Of a stretch of 46,624 bases of DNA, positions 698 through 28,807 are shown piece by piece. Numbering within the stretch: the stretch's first letter is position 1; every line of letters starts with the position of its first letter. The notes under the pieces are model-generated. The model searched no databases. It saw only the letters and a list, made by a program, of their open reading frames with translations, and had not been told where the DNA came from. This stretch comes from a virus (lineage: Duplodnaviria > Heunggongvirae > Uroviricota > Caudoviricetes). The translations under genes and the position numbers were made by a program. The stretch lies in the IMG/VR virus record IMGVR_UViG_3300029858_000359; one strand, given 5' to 3'.

Positions 698-1060
698 GGG
701 GCTGATTCTGGATTCGACGGGATTTGCGAAACCCAAGGTGCATGCCGAGGGGCGGTTGGCCTCGTAAAAAGCCGCAAAAAATAGTCGCAAACGACGAAAA
801 CTACGCTTTAGCAGCTTAATAACCTGCTTAGAGCCCTCTCTCCCTAGCCTCCGCTCTTAGGACGGGGATCAAGAGAGGTCAAACCCAAAAGAGATCGCGT
901 GGAAGCCCTGCCTGGGGTTGAAGCGTTAAAACTTAATCAGGCTAGTTTGTTAGTGGCGTGTCCGTCCGCAGCTGGCAAGCGAATGTAAAGACTGACTAAG
1001 CATGTAGTACCGAGGATGTAGGAATTTCGGACGCGGGTTCAACTCCCGCCAGCTCCACCA
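698..1060 (+). ncRNA. ssrA: tmRNA (SsrA), about 363 nt
   Basis: Starts GGGGCTGATTCTGGATTCGACGGG, contains the tag-encoding stretch GCAAACGACGAAAACTACGCTTTAGCAGCTTAA, ends with tRNA-like arm GGGTTCAACTCCCGCCAGCTCCACCA. Confidence 0.95.
1028..1060. repeat. attL: ssrA 3'-end copy of the 33-bp direct repeat (partner at 41202-41234)
   Basis: CGGACGCGGGTTCAACTCCCGCCAGCTCCACCA recurs at 41202-41234 with one mismatch. Confidence 0.85.
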
Positions 1061-1269: not shown

Positions 1270-2301
1270 ATGGAAGCTACTGTGGATTCGATTGATTTTC
1301 TGATCCGTAGTGAAGATGATTTTCTAAACTTTCTGGAAGAAATGAAAGCCCGAGAGGGGCTTGATTCTAAAGAGTTTATTTTCCCTAACGTAAAGTTTGC
1401 AGGCTGGCCATCCTTAGACATAAATGTTAAAGGAGAGCGGTATCATTCATCAATTACATCAGCAATGTTGTTTGGTATGTCAATGCTCAACGAGGAGATA
1501 CAGCGGGCGTTTGCAACCATACGATACGGATCGCAGAATCTTCAACGCTTGACTAATGAAGACAAGCAACGACTTGATATAAATTTTAAAATTAGCGAAG
1601 GTTCTAGTGATGCGGAAGGCACCACTGACAAGATCATCAACGCAGTAACTGATTTTTTGCGAGATACTATGTCTGGACTGAACGGCTGGCAGAAAATGCT
1701 TGTTATAATCACAATGGTTGGCGCGGCCAGCACATGTGGTTATCACTACATTTCAGAAAATGCCGTAACAGAAAGACATGCAACTGATCGGCAGGTTGAA
1801 ATTGCGAAAACCACATCCGATGGCATAAACAAAGCCATAGAAGCAACATTAGATTATAAAATCTATGGGAAATCAGCGATTAGCGATAAAGTTACTAGTC
1901 ACGGACAAGCAGGTAAAAGTGCTTTAGTGAAGCAATTAGCTGCTGATCCTACTGTCGAAACCGTGACTTTAGGAAATGAGAAACTAACACGACAAGACCT
2001 AAATACCTACAACAGCCGACAATCTGTAGATAGAGAACGTAAAGAACGAACTGATATATTTTCCATCAAAGGTGTAACCAGAACAGGGCCAACAAATCAG
2101 GATATTAATATTAACGTTGTTAGGGTCTCTAATGACGAATGCTTCACAATCAAAGCTTCAGCTGATGTTATCACCCAAGATGAGTTGACAGCTATTGTTG
2201 ACGCTTTGTCAAACAACTCTCATATTAAAATCAGTTACTTAGAGGTAATTGAAAAGGGTGCTGTTTCTATAGGTCAGTTCAACACTATTGTTTCAGAATA
2301 A
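1270..2301 (+). CDS. Hypothetical protein, 343 aa, one central hydrophobic helix (prophage-end cargo)
   Basis: Long ORF in AT-rich DNA with upstream TAAGGA ribosome-binding site; hydrophobic stretch WQKMLVIITMVGAASTCGYHYI; no family recognised. Confidence 0.6.
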   Translation: MEATVDSIDFLIRSEDDFLNFLEEMKAREGLDSKEFIFPNVKFAGWPSLDINVKGERYHSSITSAMLFGMSMLNEEIQRAFATIRYGSQNLQRLTNEDKQRLDINFKISEGSSDAEGTTDKIINAVTDFLRDTMSGLNGWQKMLVIITMVGAASTCGYHYISENAVTERHATDRQVEIAKTTSDGINKAIEATLDYKIYGKSAISDKVTSHGQAGKSALVKQLAADPTVETVTLGNEKLTRQDLNTYNSRQSVDRERKERTDIFSIKGVTRTGPTNQDININVVRVSNDECFTIKASADVITQDELTAIVDALSNNSHIKISYLEVIEKGAVSIGQFNTIVSE

Positions 2302-2352
2302 TCACTTAACCCCATTTATGTAGGTTGAGGTTATAAGTCACGGAGACCAGAT

Positions 2353-2697
2353 ATGTCCTTAAAGTATGCACATGAAAAATTTCATACTGCAGTACTTACT
2401 CTTGCGGGCCATGGAAGTATTCAAGAACGCTTGATTAATTCGTATGTTTTTAGCCTTGGGCATCTTAAAACAGCCGATGATATTCCAAATGCCTTACAAA
2501 GCAGGTTCGATGAATTATGTAAGGAACTGACTAAGTTTGATGCCACTGGCGATGAGGGGCGAGTTCAAGCAACAGTATCAAAACTTAACGATTTCGAGAT
2601 CAATAAACTGATCGAAGATATTGTCAGTCTTAACGATGATATTTGCATGAAATTGGCTCTGACGGATGAGACTTACCAAGACATACACCAAAGTTAA
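2353..2697 (+). CDS. Hypothetical protein, 114 aa
   Basis: ORF with GGAG ribosome-binding site 8 nt upstream; follows 1270-2301 after a 51-nt gap and ends at a terminator. Confidence 0.55.
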   Translation: MSLKYAHEKFHTAVLTLAGHGSIQERLINSYVFSLGHLKTADDIPNALQSRFDELCKELTKFDATGDEGRVQATVSKLNDFEINKLIEDIVSLNDDICMKLALTDETYQDIHQS

Positions 2698-2724
2698 TTG
2701 ATTAAATTCAAAAAGTTAACGTTC

Positions 2725-2750
2725 AACCAGCCAGTTTTTGGCTGGTTTAT
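2725..2750. terminator. Bidirectional rho-independent terminator between convergent genes
   Basis: AACCAGCCAGTTTTTGGCTGGTT hairpin with flanking T and A runs. Confidence 0.6.
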
Positions 2751-2781
2751 TGTCTTATAATATTCTTGCTCGAATGATGCA

Positions 2782-2994
2782 CTATTTATGATGTAATCCG
2801 GACATCAGTTCATGGACAAGATTATCTCTTTCATTGTGTTGCAACCGTAAATGCATAGCAAAAAGGTGAGCACTATCCTCATTCCTCTTCAAGCCATGCT
2901 GTTCAAGATACCCGAAAAAACGGCTTCTCTTATCCGCTATTTCCTGAGTCTGACGTGCAACATTTACCAAATTTTCTAGCGTTTTTCTTGGCAT
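2782..2994 (-). CDS. Hypothetical small protein, 70 aa
   Basis: ORF preceded by a strong AGGAGG ribosome-binding site (reverse complement of 2998-3003); no family recognised. Confidence 0.55.
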   Translation of the reverse strand: MPRKTLENLVNVARQTQEIADKRSRFFGYLEQHGLKRNEDSAHLFAMHLRLQHNERDNLVHELMSGLHHK

Positions 2995-3192
2995 ACTATT
3001 TCCTCCTGAAATTGTTGTAATTCACTAGGATATTCATTTTAATTTGTATCATTTAGTACCAAAACCGCTATCAATTAACAAAGCCATCGTTGTGGTTTAC
3101 CTTGCAGCCGTTTTTTGTCATTGACTCTATGTGAAAATAATGAATCATCATGAGATTGGCTCACACGTTCTTGAATTCGACGAGCTGTGTCT

Positions 3193-4307: not shown

Positions 4308-4909
4308 TGAATAACGCAGAATTAAACAGTGAATTAATTGCCACTATGGCAGGAGAAATTACTGTTTATAACTTTGACGTCATGAGTCGGGAGTATATTT
4401 CAGCTTCAACTGAATATCTTGCTGTTGGTGTCGGCATTCCGGCATATTCCTGTTTAGATGCTCCAGGCACCTACAAAGCTGGTTATGCAATCTGCCGCTC
4501 TGCAGATTTTAACTCATGGGAATATGTACCAGACCATCGCGGTGAAATCGTCTATAACACCGAAACGGGAGACGCCAAAGAAATCACAACTCCGGGTGAT
4601 TACCCCGAAAAAACAACCACTATCGCCCCGTTAACGCCATACGATAAATGGGATGGTGAGAAATGGGTGACGGATACTGAGACACAGCATAGCGCCGCAG
4701 TAGACGCGGCAGAAGCACAACGTCAGTCACTGATTGATACTGCAATGGCTTCCATTAGTCTGATTCAACTGAAATTGCAGGCCGGGCGGAAGCTGATGCA
4801 GGCAGAGACCACCCGACTTAACACTGTGCTGGATTACATTGACGCGGTGACGGCAACAGATACCAGTACCGCGCCGGATGTCATCTGGCCTGAACTGCCG
4901 GAGGAGTAG
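4307..4909 (+). CDS. Tail fibre assembly protein (partner of the alternative fibre segment)
   Basis: 200-aa ORF directly after the fibre segment; C-terminus LDYIDAVTATDTSTAPDVIWPELPE typical of Tfa proteins. Confidence 0.8.
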   Translation: MNNAELNSELIATMAGEITVYNFDVMSREYISASTEYLAVGVGIPAYSCLDAPGTYKAGYAICRSADFNSWEYVPDHRGEIVYNTETGDAKEITTPGDYPEKTTTIAPLTPYDKWDGEKWVTDTETQHSAAVDAAEAQRQSLIDTAMASISLIQLKLQAGRKLMQAETTRLNTVLDYIDAVTATDTSTAPDVIWPELPEE

Positions 4910-5312
4910 GCCATTCAATATCTGGCGCACTGGAAGTATCGACCAGTTCCAGTGCGTCCAGATAATCCAGCCACAAATTATATTGCGCCAGTTCCTCACC
5001 TTTCAGACGACCAATCGCCGCTTTACCAGGCCATTGTTTACTGTTCATGTATTCGTTGGCCTGATTAACTAATCGCTGTTTATTTGATTCAGCGATTGAG
5101 ATTAATTCTTCGCTGGTAAGTGGTGGCGCATCCTGCCATGCTGGAAAACCATTTTTATCTGAACCAAGTATTTTACCATCAGGCCATGCAACTCCTGCGA
5201 ACTCAGAATAAATAGTAAAGTTTATTTTCGTAGCGTTCTCAGGAATGGTTTGGCTATCTGGTGAAATATAAAATCCCGAATCAGAGGGATTAAAATAATA
5301 TGTCTTTTCCAT
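4881..5312 (-). CDS. Tail fibre assembly protein (partner of the currently expressed fibre)
   Basis: 143-aa ORF; C-terminus LWLDYLDALELVDTSSAPDIEWPTPP, Tfa-like. Confidence 0.8.
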   Translation of the reverse strand: MEKTYYFNPSDSGFYISPDSQTIPENATKINFTIYSEFAGVAWPDGKILGSDKNGFPAWQDAPPLTSEELISIAESNKQRLVNQANEYMNSKQWPGKAAIGRLKGEELAQYNLWLDYLDALELVDTSSAPDIEWPTPPAVQAR

Positions 5313-23909: not shown

Positions 23910-24059
23910 TGCATAATCCTCTTGGATGGTTCGCGTGCGATACGTGGCATCCTTCTCAGAATCGAATCGCACTCCACTCCGGTTTTGCCATAAACGATCT
24001 TTTATGCTTCGCTGGATGTAGTTGATAGTTGTTGAAACTCAATGAACAGGAGTTCACAA

Positions 24060-24395
24060 ATGAATAGTTATGAATGGGAATGGCTTTTAAACAAAGATGA
24101 CACCCTATGCTTTTTCCCCGTAGGCCATTCTGTAGAAGGTAATTACAAAATTCACTTTGAGTTGAGCGGTAGTTGTAACCTTAGAGTCTCAGATGCTGAA
24201 TGGCATGGTAAACCTGTACTGCTGTTCGAATACTTCGATGAAGATGATGACCGCCCTGCAATAATCGAAATATTAGAAACAACCACTACAACTGTGGAGG
24301 CGATGATCGCACATCTGAATAGTATCGATAGTATTTACCATGAACCGATTTACAAAGCGGTTTACGAGTGGGCCGTAAAGTTTTTCTATCGATGA
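24060..24395 (+). CDS. Moron gene 1: hypothetical acidic protein, about 111 aa
   Basis: AT-rich ORF opposite in orientation to flanking late genes; AGGAG ribosome-binding site 7 nt upstream of ATG at 24060; no family recognised. Confidence 0.55.
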   Translation: MNSYEWEWLLNKDDTLCFFPVGHSVEGNYKIHFELSGSCNLRVSDAEWHGKPVLLFEYFDEDDDRPAIIEILETTTTTVEAMIAHLNSIDSIYHEPIYKAVYEWAVKFFYR

Positions 24396-24495
24396 TACTT
24401 CGTTATCTTGCTGGCATTCACAATACCTTTACATACTAATGACATGCCAGCACAATACTGTCACTTACAACCGTTCGGATTACCTAGAGAAAAGT

Positions 24496-25065
24496 ATGAT
24501 TCAGGATTTACTGATCGAAGCAATTAGTCACGATAGGATGCATAAAAAGTTAAATGAACTGAATTGCTACTTCTACAATCGCAAACATGAAACTCAAATA
24601 CGTGATGAGTTAGTTGTTATTCTCAATCAAATCAGCACACTAACTGCTTTAAGTGAGCATCCAAAACTCGGTATCGGCGCTGTTGACATATCACTTTATA
24701 ACCAGTCGATATTAACGTCTGAACATAATGGCAATGTTGCAACCATCGAGATCAAACACCATTACCCAAAGGATTTACTTTATCGGCAAGTTCAAGAAGA
24801 CATCATTTCCGATATTTCAAGAGTAATAGTTTCACCAACTACACATTTTATCCATATAATCCAGCAAAGAACTAGGATTAATACTCCTTCTTTTGGCCAA
24901 GTGAAATTCCTTGAACGTGATGCAAGTGATATCAGCACTTATGTGCAATGCCTTGAAGAGCTAAGTTCCTTCCCCAGTATCTTTCATAAAAAAAGTATAT
25001 GTATTGAGGTACTTGGTGAAATTATGTCGACATATACCTTTAACGTATATTCATTTGACAACTGA
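24496..25065 (+). CDS. Moron gene 2: hypothetical protein, about 189 aa (ORF track start 24439)
   Basis: AT-rich ORF directly after moron gene 1; no recognisable motifs. Confidence 0.5.
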   Translation: MIQDLLIEAISHDRMHKKLNELNCYFYNRKHETQIRDELVVILNQISTLTALSEHPKLGIGAVDISLYNQSILTSEHNGNVATIEIKHHYPKDLLYRQVQEDIISDISRVIVSPTTHFIHIIQQRTRINTPSFGQVKFLERDASDISTYVQCLEELSSFPSIFHKKSICIEVLGEIMSTYTFNVYSFDN

Positions 25066-25086: not shown

Positions 25087-25344
25087 TTAATGGTTAGTTC
25101 TCTCTGCATCTATTTTACGAATATCAGCTTTATCCCGATTGCAGTTAGCCAGTGCAGACAACAGACTCACATTCAGCTCCAGGCTGGCACCATAAGTCAG
25201 AGGATTTGGTATGAACGGTACAGGTGTTTCAGAAGTCAGACTAGTCGGTAATGTTGTAGCCGGAGTGCTCACGTAAACTGTCCGCGTACTTCCGCAACCG
25301 CTCAGCAGCGGCAGCAGGCACAAGGCGTGCAGCACAACCATCAT
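25087..25344 (-). CDS. o-spanin (Rz1-like outer-membrane lipoprotein)
   Basis: MMVVLHALCLLPLLSGC lipobox followed by Pro-rich region; overlaps the 3' end of the Rz-like gene in another frame. Confidence 0.65.
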   Translation of the reverse strand: MMVVLHALCLLPLLSGCGSTRTVYVSTPATTLPTSLTSETPVPFIPNPLTYGASLELNVSLLSALANCNRDKADIRKIDAERTNH

Positions 25345-25621
25345 CCGCAACAGCCACTTTGATATCTTTCTGGGTTCTCTGTGACTCCAGTGCGATCTGC
25401 TGTTTTGCATGCTGGTTAATCTCTATAACTGTATTGACGATTTGCAGTGATTGCAGGACGTTACGGGTAATGGCTGTTGCAGATTCAGCATTTTGTACAG
25501 CCTCATCAGCACGTTTCTTTTCGTGCTGATATTTGCTGTAGTAGTGGTTGGCAGACCAGATGAAAGAACCGATGACAGTAAAGAAGAATGCAGCGATAAC
25601 CAGCTTATAGCTCAACTTCAT
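25241..25621 (-). CDS. i-spanin (Rz-like)
   Basis: N-terminal transmembrane helix then coiled-coil periplasmic domain; immediately downstream of endolysin. Confidence 0.7.
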   Translation of the reverse strand: MKLSYKLVIAAFFFTVIGSFIWSANHYYSKYQHEKKRADEAVQNAESATAITRNVLQSLQIVNTVIEINQHAKQQIALESQRTQKDIKVAVADDGCAARLVPAAAAERLRKYADSLREHSGYNITD

Positions 25622-26081
25622 TTACCACCCCACCAGCCTCTTTAAATCGGGCAATCAGGTCACCGATTTTATGTTCATACTGACCGTAACCAGCGCCCGG
25701 CAGTGAAGCCCAGATATTGCTGCAACGATCGATAGCCTGACGAATATCGCCGCGATCAATCATCGGTAAAGCGCCACGCTCTTTAATCTGCTGCAATGCC
25801 ACAGCATCCTGGCTTTTTGGAGAGAAGTCTTTCAGCCCAAGCTGCTTGCGGTAAGCATCCCACCAGCGTGAAAGAAGTTGATAACGGCCTGCAGCTGTTG
25901 ATTTGAGTTTCGGGTTTAGCGTGACAAGTTTGCGAGGGTGATCGGAGTAATCAGTGAAGAGTTCTCCACCGACAATAACGTCATAACCATGATTACGTGT
26001 CGGTTGTAGCCCATTATCCGTTCCTTCTGACCAGGCCACCATATCGAGGAAAGCTTTACGCTGAGGATTAAGATTTTGCAT
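25605..26081 (-). CDS. R: Endolysin, lambda R-type lytic transglycosylase
   Basis: 158-aa protein recognised as near-identical to lambda R (QRKAFLDMVAWSEGTDNG...NHGYDVIVGGELFTDYSDHPRKLVTLNPKLKS). Confidence 0.9.
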   Translation of the reverse strand: MQNLNPQRKAFLDMVAWSEGTDNGLQPTRNHGYDVIVGGELFTDYSDHPRKLVTLNPKLKSTAAGRYQLLSRWWDAYRKQLGLKDFSPKSQDAVALQQIKERGALPMIDRGDIRQAIDRCSNIWASLPGAGYGQYEHKIGDLIARFKEAGGVVNEVEL

Positions 26082-26373
26082 TTTTCACCCCTGTCAGCCG
26101 TTCCCAGAAGTACGTCAGTGCAACCGAACCCATCGCACCACTAATCCCCGCAGTTGCGAGAATCATGTAAATACTGAATCCACTTTCGATACTGATTAGG
26201 CCACCAATAACACCGGTGAATCCTGATACAACTATCTGAGCGAGGGCATTTATCCAGCTCCACGTTGCTTTACTCTGCTTCACATCAATCAGGTAACGGA
26301 CAAGCCCCCCCCAACCTGCGATGATCAGCAAAACAAGCCAGAACGCTCCAGCAAGATTCTCTTTTTCGTGCAT
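26068..26373 (-). CDS. Holin, three transmembrane helices (ORF track extends to 26472; start uncertain)
   Basis: Three hydrophobic helices and charged C-terminus ERLTGVKNAKS; directly upstream of and overlapping the endolysin. Confidence 0.65.
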   Translation of the reverse strand: MHEKENLAGAFWLVLLIIAGWGGLVRYLIDVKQSKATWSWINALAQIVVSGFTGVIGGLISIESGFSIYMILATAGISGAMGSVALTYFWERLTGVKNAKS

Positions 26374-26493
26374 ATGAATAGCCGCAGTTTCGCCTCCGAC
26401 AGAAAATCGGAGCGTGAAATGATATGTTGATTTATTATTAATTCGAAAATTACATTCTAATTCATCAGGCATTGATGATTTTATAATAATAAA

Positions 26494-26519
26494 GGCCGTT
26501 CGTTACGGCCTTTATTATT
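26494..26519. terminator. Bidirectional hairpin terminator
   Basis: AAAGGCCGTTCGTTACGGCCTTT palindrome flanked by AT runs. Confidence 0.55.
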
Positions 26520-26524
26520 GATAT

Positions 26525-26860
26525 TTATTTTACATCCCAAGGTAGTTCCTCAAGAGAGAAGACTAATTCATTATCAATAATTTCGTATTCTGCATAACCT
26601 TCAACCTCTCCTGAGAAGTTATTGTCAACGCATCCTTCATAATAGCTATATGGTGCTATAAAGTGAAACCCATATTCATCTATCTCTGTGATTTCAAAAT
26701 TGTAGTAATCGTAAGAATATCGAATATCATCATCAGAAATAGAACTAAGTACATAGTTATTAAATTTATCGGAATGCTTAACGATAAGCTCTGACAACGC
26801 GTCAAGATTCTCTGGAGAGATATTTCCTAACGGTAATCTGTACTCAACGGCATTAATCAT
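26525..26860 (-). CDS. Hypothetical small acidic protein, 111 aa, in the Q-to-holin slot
   Basis: AT-rich ORF between the late terminator and the holin; no family recognised. Confidence 0.5.
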   Translation of the reverse strand: MINAVEYRLPLGNISPENLDALSELIVKHSDKFNNYVLSSISDDDIRYSYDYYNFEITEIDEYGFHFIAPYSYYEGCVDNNFSGEVEGYAEYEIIDNELVFSLEELPWDVK

Positions 26861-26911
26861 ACAACCTCCTTTTTAACTGATATGAGGTTATATAATGTGT
26901 TTCAGTACAAG

Positions 26912-26940
26912 TAAATAAAAACCCGCTCAACAGCGGGTTC
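26912..26940 (-). terminator. Putative late-operon terminator (tR'-like, target of Q antitermination)
   Basis: Minus-strand hairpin AACCCGCTGTTGAGCGGGTT followed by TTTTATTTAC. Confidence 0.55.
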
Positions 26941-26985
26941 GTGAAAATTATCAACGGCAGACATACAAAGCCCATCGTTGAGAAA

Positions 26986-27014
26986 ATCTTATCCATATTT
27001 TTTGAAAAATGCAA
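26986..27014 (-). promoter_or_regulatory. Putative late promoter PR'
   Basis: Minus-strand TTGCAT, 17-nt spacer, TAAGAT, between Q stop and the terminator. Confidence 0.45.
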
Positions 27015-27045
27015 GCTTCATGTCGCCATCTTCGGCGAAAATCAC

Positions 27046-27798
27046 TTATCTCGTCACCTTTCTCAATTGTGTTTCAGCATATGCTTCTTCCTGCCAGCAC
27101 TTTGTTACTAGTTTATCAATTACGTCTGCATATCCTTTGTACCACTGATAATCAGTCAGGTCTGGAACCAGCTTCTGGACATGACGTCGTGCCAGTGTAG
27201 TTGGTAAACGGCTAAACCGGTTTCCATTGCAACGCCCACAAATCTTATAAACAGGCGTGCCATGAAGCCGGGTCCTTTTTTCATCCAGGACAATACCTTT
27301 ACCCTTACACCCTCTGCACGCTGTGCTGACTTCTCCCTTACCATGACAATGCTGACATAGTTCCTTCACCCACTCTTCCTTGATAACAGATTCCCCGCTT
27401 CTGGAGTGTTTCACCACCTCGCGCAATACATTATGAAATCCAGTACCAGCACAATGCTCACAGCGAGCCTTACTTGCCGCAGACCTGGAATAATCAGCAA
27501 AGGCAAAATTCACAAGGTAAGGAATGATCTGTAGCCGGGTTTCTTCACTCAATTTATTCAATGTCGGGTTATCCAGTGCCATCGCGTAATTGAGCAGACC
27601 TTCAATCGCAAACTGAGGATCCTGAACACCAACTTTTGCCAGGAATAAGGCAAACCCAAGCGGTGCTTTCGACTGCACCATCCCCTGCGCAGCCATCACA
27701 TCCGTAATCGTTAAACCACCTGAGCCTGTCGCCGGTGCGTCATCGCTCAATTTTGGAGATTTTGGGGAGTAATATTTTGGTAAGGCTTCAAGGTTCAT
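27046..27798 (-). CDS. Putative antitermination protein Q with zinc-finger repeats
   Basis: Four CxxC(x)G motifs (CEHCAGTG, CQHCHGKG, CRGCKGKG, CGRCNG); position immediately upstream of PR'/tR' and the lysis cassette; start at the Met with GGAG ribosome-binding site. Confidence 0.6.
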   Translation of the reverse strand: MNLEALPKYYSPKSPKLSDDAPATGSGGLTITDVMAAQGMVQSKAPLGFALFLAKVGVQDPQFAIEGLLNYAMALDNPTLNKLSEETRLQIIPYLVNFAFADYSRSAASKARCEHCAGTGFHNVLREVVKHSRSGESVIKEEWVKELCQHCHGKGEVSTACRGCKGKGIVLDEKRTRLHGTPVYKICGRCNGNRFSRLPTTLARRHVQKLVPDLTDYQWYKGYADVIDKLVTKCWQEEAYAETQLRKVTR

Positions 27799-27811
27799 GC
27801 TCGTTCTCCAC

Positions 27812-28807
27812 TTACGCCAGTACGCCAATTGCCAGCGCACGATCGATAAAACGAAATATCAGCTCCAGTTGGGAGCCATACTTCTCTTCAAATGCCACGG
27901 TATCCGCATGCAGTTCGTCGTGATGCTTTCTGCACAAAGGCAACACAAAGAGGTCATGCGCTTTTGTACCCATTCCCCCCTGACCGTGGCCTATCAGGTG
28001 GTGGGGATCATCAGCAGGCTTTCCACAACATGCACACGGCTGTGTCTTAACCCAGCGCGTGTACTTTTCATTAACCCAGCGGCGACGTTTGGGGCGTAAC
28101 ATAAAAGACTCCGGCGACTCCGGCTCCACTTTCAGCGCCAGCACCTTTTTCGCCTTATCCTGGATGATGCTGGTGGCAGGAACCGAAGGCACAAGGTCAC
28201 TTTCCCGGGTGACAGACGGCGCAACAGGCTTCGGTAATCTCAGTGCCTTACGGGCTGCACTTTCCGGTAAAGCATCCGCCAGGTCATTACGAATCAGCCA
28301 CCAGCACAGTTCCGGCATTGTCACAACGTGACTGTCATCAAAACCGAGATCCCGACGCACAACAGACAACACCCAGCGGGCACAGTTATCCGTTGCCATT
28401 GATTCCAGCCGTTCCGTGAACTGATCGCGCAGCTGGTTATCGCAGTGCCAGCACAGACGGATTGCGCCCGGAGCGTGTCGCATTGTGGTCATGTTCTCGC
28501 TGTGCCAGTCGGAATGAGGCCACTGGCAGCCTTTTTCACGAAGTAACCAGCTTTCAAGACATTCCACTCCACCAGCACGACGAATCACTGCCTCATTGCG
28601 GAACACGGCCCGAACGGCAGGATCATCCGCCAGCGGTTGTGATGCCGCCGGAACGGCACCACTGGCGAAAGATGAATAACGTTCCGGCTCAGGCTCCAGC
28701 AGGACACGCCCCTGCATAAACAAGGGCATCAGCTCTGAACCTGGTCTGAACAATACGATCCCCATACGCGGGGCAATTTCAGGGGTCAGTAGTGCTCTCA
28801 CGGTCAC
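27812..28807 (-). CDS. DUF968-like phage protein
   Basis: C-terminal motif CACCGKPADDPHHLIGHGQGGMGTKAHDLFVLPLCRKHHDELH. Confidence 0.55.
   Translation of the reverse strand: MTVRALLTPEIAPRMGIVLFRPGSELMPLFMQGRVLLEPEPERYSSFASGAVPAASQPLADDPAVRAVFRNEAVIRRAGGVECLESWLLREKGCQWPHSDWHSENMTTMRHAPGAIRLCWHCDNQLRDQFTERLESMATDNCARWVLSVVRRDLGFDDSHVVTMPELCWWLIRNDLADALPESAARKALRLPKPVAPSVTRESDLVPSVPATSIIQDKAKKVLALKVEPESPESFMLRPKRRRWVNEKYTRWVKTQPCACCGKPADDPHHLIGHGQGGMGTKAHDLFVLPLCRKHHDELHADTVAFEEKYGSQLELIFRFIDRALAIGVLA

Follow-up and report, generated by a model that had tools for sequence, protein, structure and literature searches.

A Small Acidic Protein Family Encoded by an Accessory Cassette between the Late Antiterminator and Holin Genes of Enterobacterial Prophages

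Accessory Cassette in the Q-to-Holin Slot

In the 46,624-nucleotide sequence of the Caudoviricetes record IMGVR_UViG_3300029858_000359 (hereafter the window, that is, the whole stretch of DNA that was analyzed), an open reading frame (ORF) encoding a small, highly acidic protein of 111 aa is located between the genes of the late antiterminator Q and the holin (26525–26860, minus strand). The ORF starts with ATG, has AAGGAGG 5′ of it, and corresponds to RefSeq entry WP_000606308.1 and to the PHROGs family phrog_13663. It is the single gene of an accessory cassette (moron) of approximately 510 bp (26406–26918), located just 3′ of the tR′-type terminator and 5′ of the holin gene, and its Shine–Dalgarno (SD) sequence and start codon are locked in a hairpin kept by compensatory changes.

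Upstream, the cassette is bordered by the tR′-type intrinsic terminator (26919–26940, minus strand), which consists of GAACCCGCUGUUGAGCGGGUUU followed by a U-run and forms a 9-bp stem (dG = −14.9 kcal/mol, z = −5.2). The same hairpin is present in the Q module of phage SfV, whose depositors annotated the equivalent element as a terminator. Next come the cassette leader (26861–26918, minus strand), the ORF and, in the gap between the ORF and the holin gene, the cassette terminator (26484–26520, minus strand), a 15-bp hairpin flanked by an A-run and a T-run and thus bidirectional in form (dG = −20.2 kcal/mol, z = −7.5). The cassette ends with an AT-rich spacer (26406–26483, minus strand), since the holin-module homology of cassette-free prophages starts at approximately 26405. 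For each of the two terminator hairpins, none of 200 dinucleotide shuffles folded equally well. The preliminary description of this locus, in which a 111-aa highly acidic ORF between the late terminator and the holin gene was bracketed by two hairpins, was thus supported by the ORF call, the composition of the product and the shuffle tests; the interval proposed there, 26480–26880, includes the ORF and the downstream hairpin but leaves the upstream tR′ hairpin outside.

According to megablast, similarity of this region to deposited phages, namely SfV-like phages, was limited to positions 26917–27100 (the 3′ end of the Q gene, pR′ and tR′) and never extended to the ORF; in SfV, homology stopped exactly past the T-run of tR′. 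No match to the gene itself was found among 50,697 deposited phage genomes by megablast or tblastn. The gene was present in 131 of the 5426 complete E. coli genomes (2.4%), in all cases at ≥99% identity, the carriers including UTI89 (UTI89_RS14590), NU14, UM146, APEC O1, APEC O18, IMT5155 and the type strain ATCC 11775/DSM 30083; of these, UTI89, NU14, APEC O1 and IMT5155 are ExPEC or APEC strains in standard laboratory use. Approximately 875 further E. coli genomes matched the holin module only (window positions 26231–26405) and lacked the gene; in some of these cassette-free prophages, Q was followed by 320 bp and the holin gene, with no gene between them. Since phage matches ended at tR′, SfV homology broke off at the same place, the gene was found in a minority of genomes, and prophages with an empty slot exist, the gene can be regarded as optional cargo. 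Its accessory nature, assumed in the preliminary description, is therefore borne out by other E. coli prophages that have the same holin and an empty slot. The proposal that the slot is a cargo position is likewise upheld by SfV, in which unrelated genes, orf47 and orf48 (the latter encoding a 350-aa DNA methyltransferase with a DPPY motif), lie between tR′ and a second terminator, followed by the holin gene.

The ORF lies in a trough of GC content (0.32–0.34 versus approximately 0.47–0.50 in the flanks), and in nine other loci the GC content of the gene was 0.35–0.40 versus 0.46–0.54 in the flanks. A search among plasmids gave a single match, NZ_CP081716.1 (1–37667), deposited as a plasmid of E. 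coli CX04. This assignment was rejected, as the 37.7-kb circular sequence is a complete SfV-like phage genome containing the gene. It suggests an excised or replicating prophage caught in the assembly and that this SfV-like phage type still excises. The gene was also found in the CX04 chromosome.

It should be noted that a near-identical tR′ hairpin, AACCCGC-N4-6-GCGGGTTTTT, follows unrelated Q genes, both of the PF03589 type (E. coli, SfV) and of the DUF1133 type (Salmonella, Citrobacter, Enterobacter); such sites were located at approximately 4905–4950 in both L003 and L009, at approximately 2488–2523 in L002, and at 26919–26940 in the window. Judging by these sequences, the common hairpin may act as a recombination junction for the exchange of slot cargo.

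Distribution of the Family and Fidelity to the Slot

A word-indexed search among 5.8 billion proteins revealed homologues of the acidic protein only in Salmonella (72% identity) and Citrobacter (69%). When 1.84 billion representatives were searched exhaustively with a HMMER profile, 26 matches were obtained at E ≤ 1e-3, nearly all of approximately 110 aa, and a second profile search (5.8 billion proteins) gave 27 clusters, the named ones belonging to E. coli, Salmonella, Citrobacter, Enterobacter, Duffyella and Erwinia. All these relatives belonged to Enterobacterales, and each annotated cluster was designated “hypothetical”. A profile scan of GTDB representative genomes, for which a tighter alignment was used, yielded no confirmed locus. 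The dN/dS ratio was 0.12–0.28 wherever dS was unsaturated, and hence the ORF encodes a protein and is subject to purifying selection.

The position of the gene was surveyed in 11 lineages, represented by the window copy and ten diverged members (26–72% identity). The Q-to-holin slot was the site of the gene in 10 of the 11, namely in the window and in members from Salmonella (P0002, P0040), Citrobacter (P0003, P0036), Enterobacter (P0031), Duffyella (P0041) and Erwiniaceae (P0046, P0044, P0038). The exception was the Erwinia tracheiphila copy, found in a region rich in insertion sequences with no recognizable prophage and no neighbor in common with the other loci. A scan of IMG/VR revealed the gene in 23 viral contigs, 22 of which contained Q (or a DUF968/NinG neighbor) upstream and a holin, endolysin or methyltransferase gene downstream.

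The flanks of these loci were non-homologous. Four types of Q were found upstream (PF03589; DUF1133/PF06530; a short form of PF06530; and an unclassified protein of 204 aa), and three lysis sets stood beside the family (PF16083 with GH24; PF16931 and PF05449 with GH19; PF04971/PF16080 with PF00959). At two loci, P0036 and P0040, the family gene was located between a winged-helix gene of the size of orf47 (63 aa) and a methyltransferase gene similar to SfV orf48.

No conserved partner gene was detected across the family contexts examined. Genes for 289-aa and 140-aa proteins adjoining the family gene in Citrobacter and Salmonella were considered as partners and discarded, being unrelated to the 293-aa and 147-aa neighbors in Erwinia. 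These two genes are found in the enlarged slot of short-Q Citrobacter and Salmonella prophages (L016, L017, L018 and L019, approximately 1476–3030, minus strand), along with a 69-aa ORF called in two of the four loci; none of them has a Pfam match, and they represent additional cargo of this hotspot. A role in immunity to the colicin or pyocin encoded in the prophages of two relatives was also rejected, as the bacteriocin genes were non-adjacent, varied in position and were missing from most contexts. Such genes were observed in a Citrobacter prophage, where a pore-forming colicin (PF01024) is encoded upstream of RusA (L009, 1181–2275, minus strand), and in Erwiniaceae, where a pyocin-S/colicin-DNase protein is encoded downstream of the lysis cassette (L024, 6598–8330, plus strand).

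Hairpin over the Shine–Dalgarno Sequence and Start Codon

In the window, the pyrimidine-rich anti-SD arm of the leader, AUUAUAUAACCUC (26896–26884), pairs with the SD/AUG arm GAGGUUGUAUGAU (26868–26856), forming a hairpin of 13 bp (26856–26896, minus strand; dG = −13.7 kcal/mol, z = −4.2). Pairing of the SD sequence and part of the AUG codon to an upstream arm was found in 23 of the 23 distinct family leaders. The arms themselves vary by clade in a compensatory manner: AUCCAC/GUGGAU, UUUUUCACCU/AGGUGAAAAA, UUCCUU/AAGGAA and UUAGUAUU..CCUU/AGGAGGUACUAA. In a composition-preserving swap test, in which each SD/AUG arm was paired with the leaders of other clades, the mean energy of pairing with the own arm was −11.4 kcal/mol versus −7.6 ± 0.7 kcal/mol for swapped arms, and none of 20,000 derangements reached the observed value. 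Leader types A, B, B2, C and F were strongly supported by this test. Comparison with Rfam gave matches of 17–26 bits in the leader region, against gathering thresholds of 38–54; in the window, only tmRNA scored above gathering.

Leader Block and Terminator of the Cassette

The leader of the window contains, besides the anti-SD arm, a promoter-like pair of hexamers, TTTACT (26915–26910) and TATAAC (26892–26887), with a 17-nt spacer, which the copies from Salmonella and Citrobacter share. In these three, the leader reads (tR′ T-run)ATTTAC[T/A]-N15-TATATAACC-N~17-GGAGGTTrTATG. In the other clades, a near-invariant block, (T-run)CATTTCTGAyTTAAAAAnnnTTTyTG(A/G)CATAA, is located 53–59 nt upstream of ATG, and TAnnnT (TATGCT, TAAGAT, TAGGAT or TAGCAT) follows 15 nt past TTGACA. 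This block of approximately 35 nt is near-invariant although the proteins of those members are only 40–50% identical, and it stays with the ORF also away from tR′ (L016, L018). As read from the sequences, the 5′ arm of the hairpin in each clade is overlapped or directly adjoined by a −10-like hexamer. With this geometry, a transcript started at the hexamer would lack the anti-SD arm, whereas the read-through RNA from pR′ would contain it.

A strict intrinsic terminator was found within approximately 50 nt of the stop codon in 20 of the 24 distinct contexts, the exceptions being three loci with a methyltransferase gene in place of the holin gene as the next one, and the Erwinia copy. Q-modified polymerase ignores terminators; consequently, one placed precisely where the ORF gives way to the lysis genes makes most sense as a block on Q-independent transcription that starts within the cassette, or leaks past tR′, and would otherwise reach the holin gene.

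Composition, Conserved Residues and Predicted Fold of the Protein

The protein contains 24 D + E and 5 K + R residues (net charge −19, pI 4.05) as well as 12 tyrosines, and its per-residue acidity lies beyond the first percentile of the 76 ORFs of ≥100 aa in the window. No signal peptide and no transmembrane or hydrophobic segment was found in its sequence. In all 40 family members of ≤120 aa, the net charge was from −9 to −22 and the pI was 4.05–4.74. Length, charge and motifs were conserved down to 26% identity; the invariant residues were F33, D45, R47, Y48, G76, C77 and W108, and the conserved motifs were Y[FY]xGCxDxN and LDETxW.

The confidence of AlphaFold2 models rose from pLDDT 74 with four sequences to pLDDT 90.4 (pTM 0.81) with 25 sequences. 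The predicted product is a cytoplasmic, single-domain alpha+beta roll with the order beta1-alpha1-alpha2-beta2 to beta6 (beta1, 3–10; alpha1, 19–28; alpha2, 30–41; beta2, 48–50; beta3, 56–60; beta4, 64–73; beta5, 82–95; beta6, 98–105). From beta3 to beta6, conserved acidic positions (56, 66, 82, 85, 87, 91, 93, 95/96, 102, 104 and 105) alternate with hydrophobic ones, which would place the acidic residues on one, solvent-exposed, face of the sheet.

Neither the protein nor any of the 25 family members gave a significant match in Pfam, NCBIfam or PADLOC; for the protein itself, no defense-system family of PADLOC-DB appeared at E ≤ 1, and a sequence-profile search of the PDB yielded nothing (best E = 0.096). 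In PHROGs, the unannotated phrog_13663 was the sole match and was matched by all 25 aligned members. No lysis-category PHROG or Pfam family (holin, antiholin, endolysin, spanin) was matched by the protein. The homology search suggested in the preliminary description, which could have revealed a lysis accessory or a conserved structural protein, thus showed no relation to either in Pfam, PHROGs, NCBIfam, PADLOC or PDB sequences, and by these sequence comparisons the acidic protein is neither a lysis nor a structural protein. No paper naming WP_000606308, UTI89_RS14590 or phrog_13663 was found in the literature, and broader searches led only to the Tai/Ati precedent considered below.

Possible Expression and Function

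The explanation that we prefer, while holding it as tentative and somewhat short of an even chance, is that of an autonomous cassette combining Q-independent transcription, damped translation of read-through RNA and a protein that acts as a binding partner or decoy. The gene would probably be transcribed from the promoter-like element of its leader and would be shielded on both sides, by tR′ upstream and by the strong terminator of the cassette downstream; a lysogen could then produce the protein while its lysis genes stay off. In lytic growth, both terminators would be passed by Q-modified polymerase, and since the long read-through transcripts contain the anti-SD arm, their translation would be damped, whereas the transcript from the cassette promoter would start within or after this arm and would be freely translatable. 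The protein would most likely act by stoichiometric binding, its conserved polyanionic sheet face meeting a positively charged surface of the target, which is probably a protein that binds nucleic acids and belongs to the host or to a competing phage, so that the role would be that of a decoy or inhibitor, with no lysis, structural or regulatory role in the phage. That the protein is simply late-expressed, as suggested in the preliminary description, is accordingly uncertain, as the promoter-like block, the own terminator and the SD/AUG hairpin point to Q-independent transcription and to restrained translation of read-through RNA.

Several observations weigh against it. The cassette promoter is read from the nucleotide sequence: a consensus promoter scan called no promoter in the window leader, TATAAC of the window clade does not end in the conserved T, and its place in the anti-SD arm also accounts for its conservation, while the best −35/−10 pair of the distant clades has an unusual spacer of 15 nt. 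With such non-canonical hexamers and spacers and no call from the scan, the promoter is treated here as putative. As for the hairpin, support from the swap test was weak in 5 of the 12 leader types (B3, D, E, G, H), and RNAalifold on the MAFFT alignment of leaders gave no consensus structure, since the alignment leaves the arms out of register. The arrangement of charge on one face is deduced from the periodicity of predicted strands, and the binding or decoy mechanism is suggested by the charge and the predicted fold class. The invariant Cys77 (GCxDxN), together with D45, R47, Y48 and W108, could instead mark a ligand-binding or catalytic site. Finally, the near-absolute position as the first late gene fits a late, Q-dependent function at least as well.

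This last point is the strongest single argument for the explanation that comes next, according to which the protein is a late-only product, encoded by the first gene of the Q-antiterminated transcript, and serves as an anti-defense mimic of DNA or another polyanion, or as an inhibitor of an immune or nuclease system, for example of systems triggered by late proteins or attacking concatemeric or packaged DNA. The position is held in 10 of 11 lineages and 22 of 23 viral contigs with any Q or lysis module; the extreme acidity is conserved, with the acidic residues predicted on one sheet face; and in some relatives the gene adjoins a late-slot N6/N4 DNA methyltransferase gene. A precedent is Ati of phage phi80, a small counter-defense protein encoded in the Q-dependent late operon and paired with Tai (PMC11364771). 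However, for a purely late, abundant factor, a hairpin over SD/AUG and a terminator separating the ORF from the holin gene would be needless or counter-productive. The DNA of an induced prophage is already host-methylated, so that late anti-restriction would have little rationale, and neither a conserved cognate defense gene nearby nor homology supports this function. The idea of a DNA mimic or anti-defense factor, put forward in the preliminary description, is still speculative; it is compatible with the family-wide acidity and its predicted location on one face, but the protein showed no sequence or fold similarity to known DNA mimics, anti-CRISPR (Acr) proteins or nucleotide sponges. On balance, a late-only anti-defense function appears rather unlikely.

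A more specific form of the preferred explanation, namely that phrog_13663 represents a new class of prophage polyanionic decoy whose output is set by the promoter from which the RNA originates (RNA made in the lysogen being translated and the very abundant late RNA, with its complete hairpin, being silenced) and which inhibits a conserved nucleic-acid-binding protein of enterobacteria or one of a competing phage, is speculative and, taken as a whole, unlikely. In this form, the cassette would be an accessory gene insulated both transcriptionally and translationally from the late operon in which it resides.

A contribution to lysis or late expression, through binding of basic holin tails, an antiholin-like action or modulation of Q read-through, is suggested by the location of the gene, which adjoins the holin gene and shares the Q-dependent transcript of the lysis genes; an acidic protein could, in principle, bind basic holin tails. 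However, the family stands beside at least three unrelated holin families (PF16083; PF16931 and PF05449; PF04971/PF16080), the endolysins (GH24, GH19, PF00959) and Q vary as well, and the gene is missing from approximately 875 E. coli prophages that have this holin. With partners so variable and most prophages with this holin lacking the gene, and with a protein that has neither a transmembrane segment nor similarity to known antiholins or lysis regulators, such a role is improbable.

The same low probability is assigned to a function in which a pocket of an NTF2/cystatin-like roll, formed by F33, D45, R47, Y48, C77 and W108, binds or modifies a cationic metabolite, a metal or a signal. The invariance of Cys77 within Y[FY]xGCxDxN and that of D45, R47, Y48 and W108 would be in agreement with a ligand-binding or enzymatic site. 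At the same time, a net charge of −19 argues against nucleotides and anionic immune signals as ligands, one invariant Cys with no invariant His makes a classical metal site unlikely, and no enzyme family of Pfam or NCBIfam was matched.

A functionless passenger, i.e., a selfish or neutral insertion kept in the slot by recombination junctions at tR′ and the lysis edge, is hardly credible: although the near-identical tR′ hairpin (AACCCGC...GCGGGTTTTT) beside unrelated Q modules could hold the slot by homologous exchange and the occurrence is patchy (2.4% of E. coli genomes, 0 of 50,697 deposited phage genomes), the gene is under purifying selection (dN/dS 0.12–0.28), its length, charge and motifs are kept to 26% identity, and the leader hairpin is kept by compensatory changes.

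Comparison with Known Systems

Morons were reportedly defined by Hendrix and colleagues for phages HK97 and HK022; examples are bor and lom of lambda and gp15 of HK97. Like these, the cassette consists of a single extra gene that is AT-rich, absent from collinear relatives, provided with a promoter-like element and a terminator, and inserted between conserved modules. It differs from the characterized morons in its unrelated product, in the use of one slot across unrelated modules and in the initiation region enclosed in a hairpin, and its promoter is putative. By comparative sequence criteria, it is a classical moron, and its slot is a familiar site of cargo. The novelty lies in the cargo family, absent from Pfam and without a structural neighbor, together with its fidelity to the slot across unrelated modules and the conserved translational gate.

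The location 3′ of Q/pR′/tR′ and 5′ of the holin gene is shared with stx of Stx phages and with orf47/orf48 of SfV, the cargo of the latter also being bracketed by two terminators; however, the acidic protein is unrelated in sequence to the Stx subunits, to orf47 and to the methyltransferase. As a small, acidic, cytoplasmic protein with no signal peptide, it is not a secreted toxin. Since the Q-to-lysis slot is the site of the Shiga toxin genes, other cargo of this slot and its expression bear on the contribution of prophages to host fitness. The hairpin and the double terminators offer a model of how a cargo gene can come first in the strongest transcript of a phage and yet not be governed by it.

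Similarity to DNA mimics and related inhibitors (T7 Ocr, ArdA, T4 Arn, Ugi, AcrIIA4, AcrF2) lies in the small size, pI of approximately 4, phage-borne gene, single domain and conserved acidity; no match to the mimic families (Ocr PF08684, ArdA PF07275 and similar) was obtained in Pfam, NCBIfam or PDB sequences for the query and the 25 members. The fold class was likened to the cystatin-like/NTF2-like/VirB8-like alpha+beta roll superfold. If the protein is indeed a decoy inhibitor, a new fold would be added to the few known acidic phage inhibitors. Like Ati, it is a small prophage protein whose gene lies in a Q-dependent late transcript, and the case of Ati demonstrates that late expression can neutralize immunity during induction; unlike Ati, the phrog_13663 family has no cognate defense gene conserved next to it, and it is not known to be related to Ati in sequence.

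The leader resembles SD-sequestering hairpins such as fourU and ROSE thermometers and attenuators, in that a pyrimidine-rich upstream arm pairs with SD and AUG and is maintained by compensatory changes; in one clade it is fourU-like, a U-run standing opposite AGGUGAAAAA. Unlike typical thermometers, the stems are more stable (from −9 to −17 kcal/mol), and no Rfam family was matched.

Flanking Modules and Other Features of the Window

The late antiterminator Q (27046–27840, minus strand) was identified by PF03589 (Antiterm, E = 5e-54) and phrog_127 (E = 6e-109), contains zinc-finger CxxC motifs and is annotated in RefSeq as “antitermination protein”. From its stop codon to the first hairpin, the sequence reads TTGCAT-N17-TAAGAT-TTTCTC-AACGATGGG, an arrangement kept in phage SfV. 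It presumably matches the layout of lambda pR′, where the late transcript starts at a −10-like sigma-70 pause element. By this likeness, a putative late promoter pR′ was placed at 26986–27014 (minus strand; −35 TTGCAT, 27014–27009; 17-nt spacer; −10 TAAGAT, 26991–26986), the transcript would start at approximately 26979, at the AACGATGGG element, and the first hairpin was termed tR′. Such a start, together with termination at tR′, would yield a constitutive transcript of approximately 65 nt in the lysogen (26912–26979, minus strand); analogues of such a short RNA would be the 6S RNA of lambda and the StxS small RNA of Stx phages. No Rfam family was found for the pR′–tR′ RNA.

Downstream of the cassette, the first lysis gene encodes a holin of the LydA type (26068–26373, minus strand; PF16083, E = 1.5e-21). 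In RefSeq, it is 101 aa long with the start at 26373, and hence a longer ORF from the ATG at 26472 is probably spurious. The genes of a lambda-R-like endolysin (25605–26081) and Rz (25241–25621), both on the minus strand, follow 3′ of it in this order. An ORF at 25087–25410 (minus strand), which overlaps the 3′ part of Rz and runs past its end, encodes an Rz1-type o-spanin with a lipoprotein signal (…LLPLLSGC…); the listed start, giving 107 aa, probably lies too far 5′.

Between Rz/Rz1 and the HNH/terminase region, two genes lie on the strand opposite to the late genes, encoding proteins of 117 aa (24042–24395, plus strand; phrog_14397) and 208 aa (24439–25065, plus strand; phrog_12494), with a GC content of 0.34–0.41 and no match in Pfam, NCBIfam or PADLOC. 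In UTI89 and GE3, different small ORFs occupy this position. The pair looks like a second, two-gene moron and is a candidate defense or conversion module.

The tmRNA gene ssrA was detected at 698–1060 (plus strand; Rfam, 295.8 bits; tag ANDENYALAA). Directly 3′ of it, a 343-aa ORF (1270–2301, plus strand) occupies the usual position of a prophage integrase; if it encodes the integrase, the SfV-like prophage is putatively integrated at ssrA.

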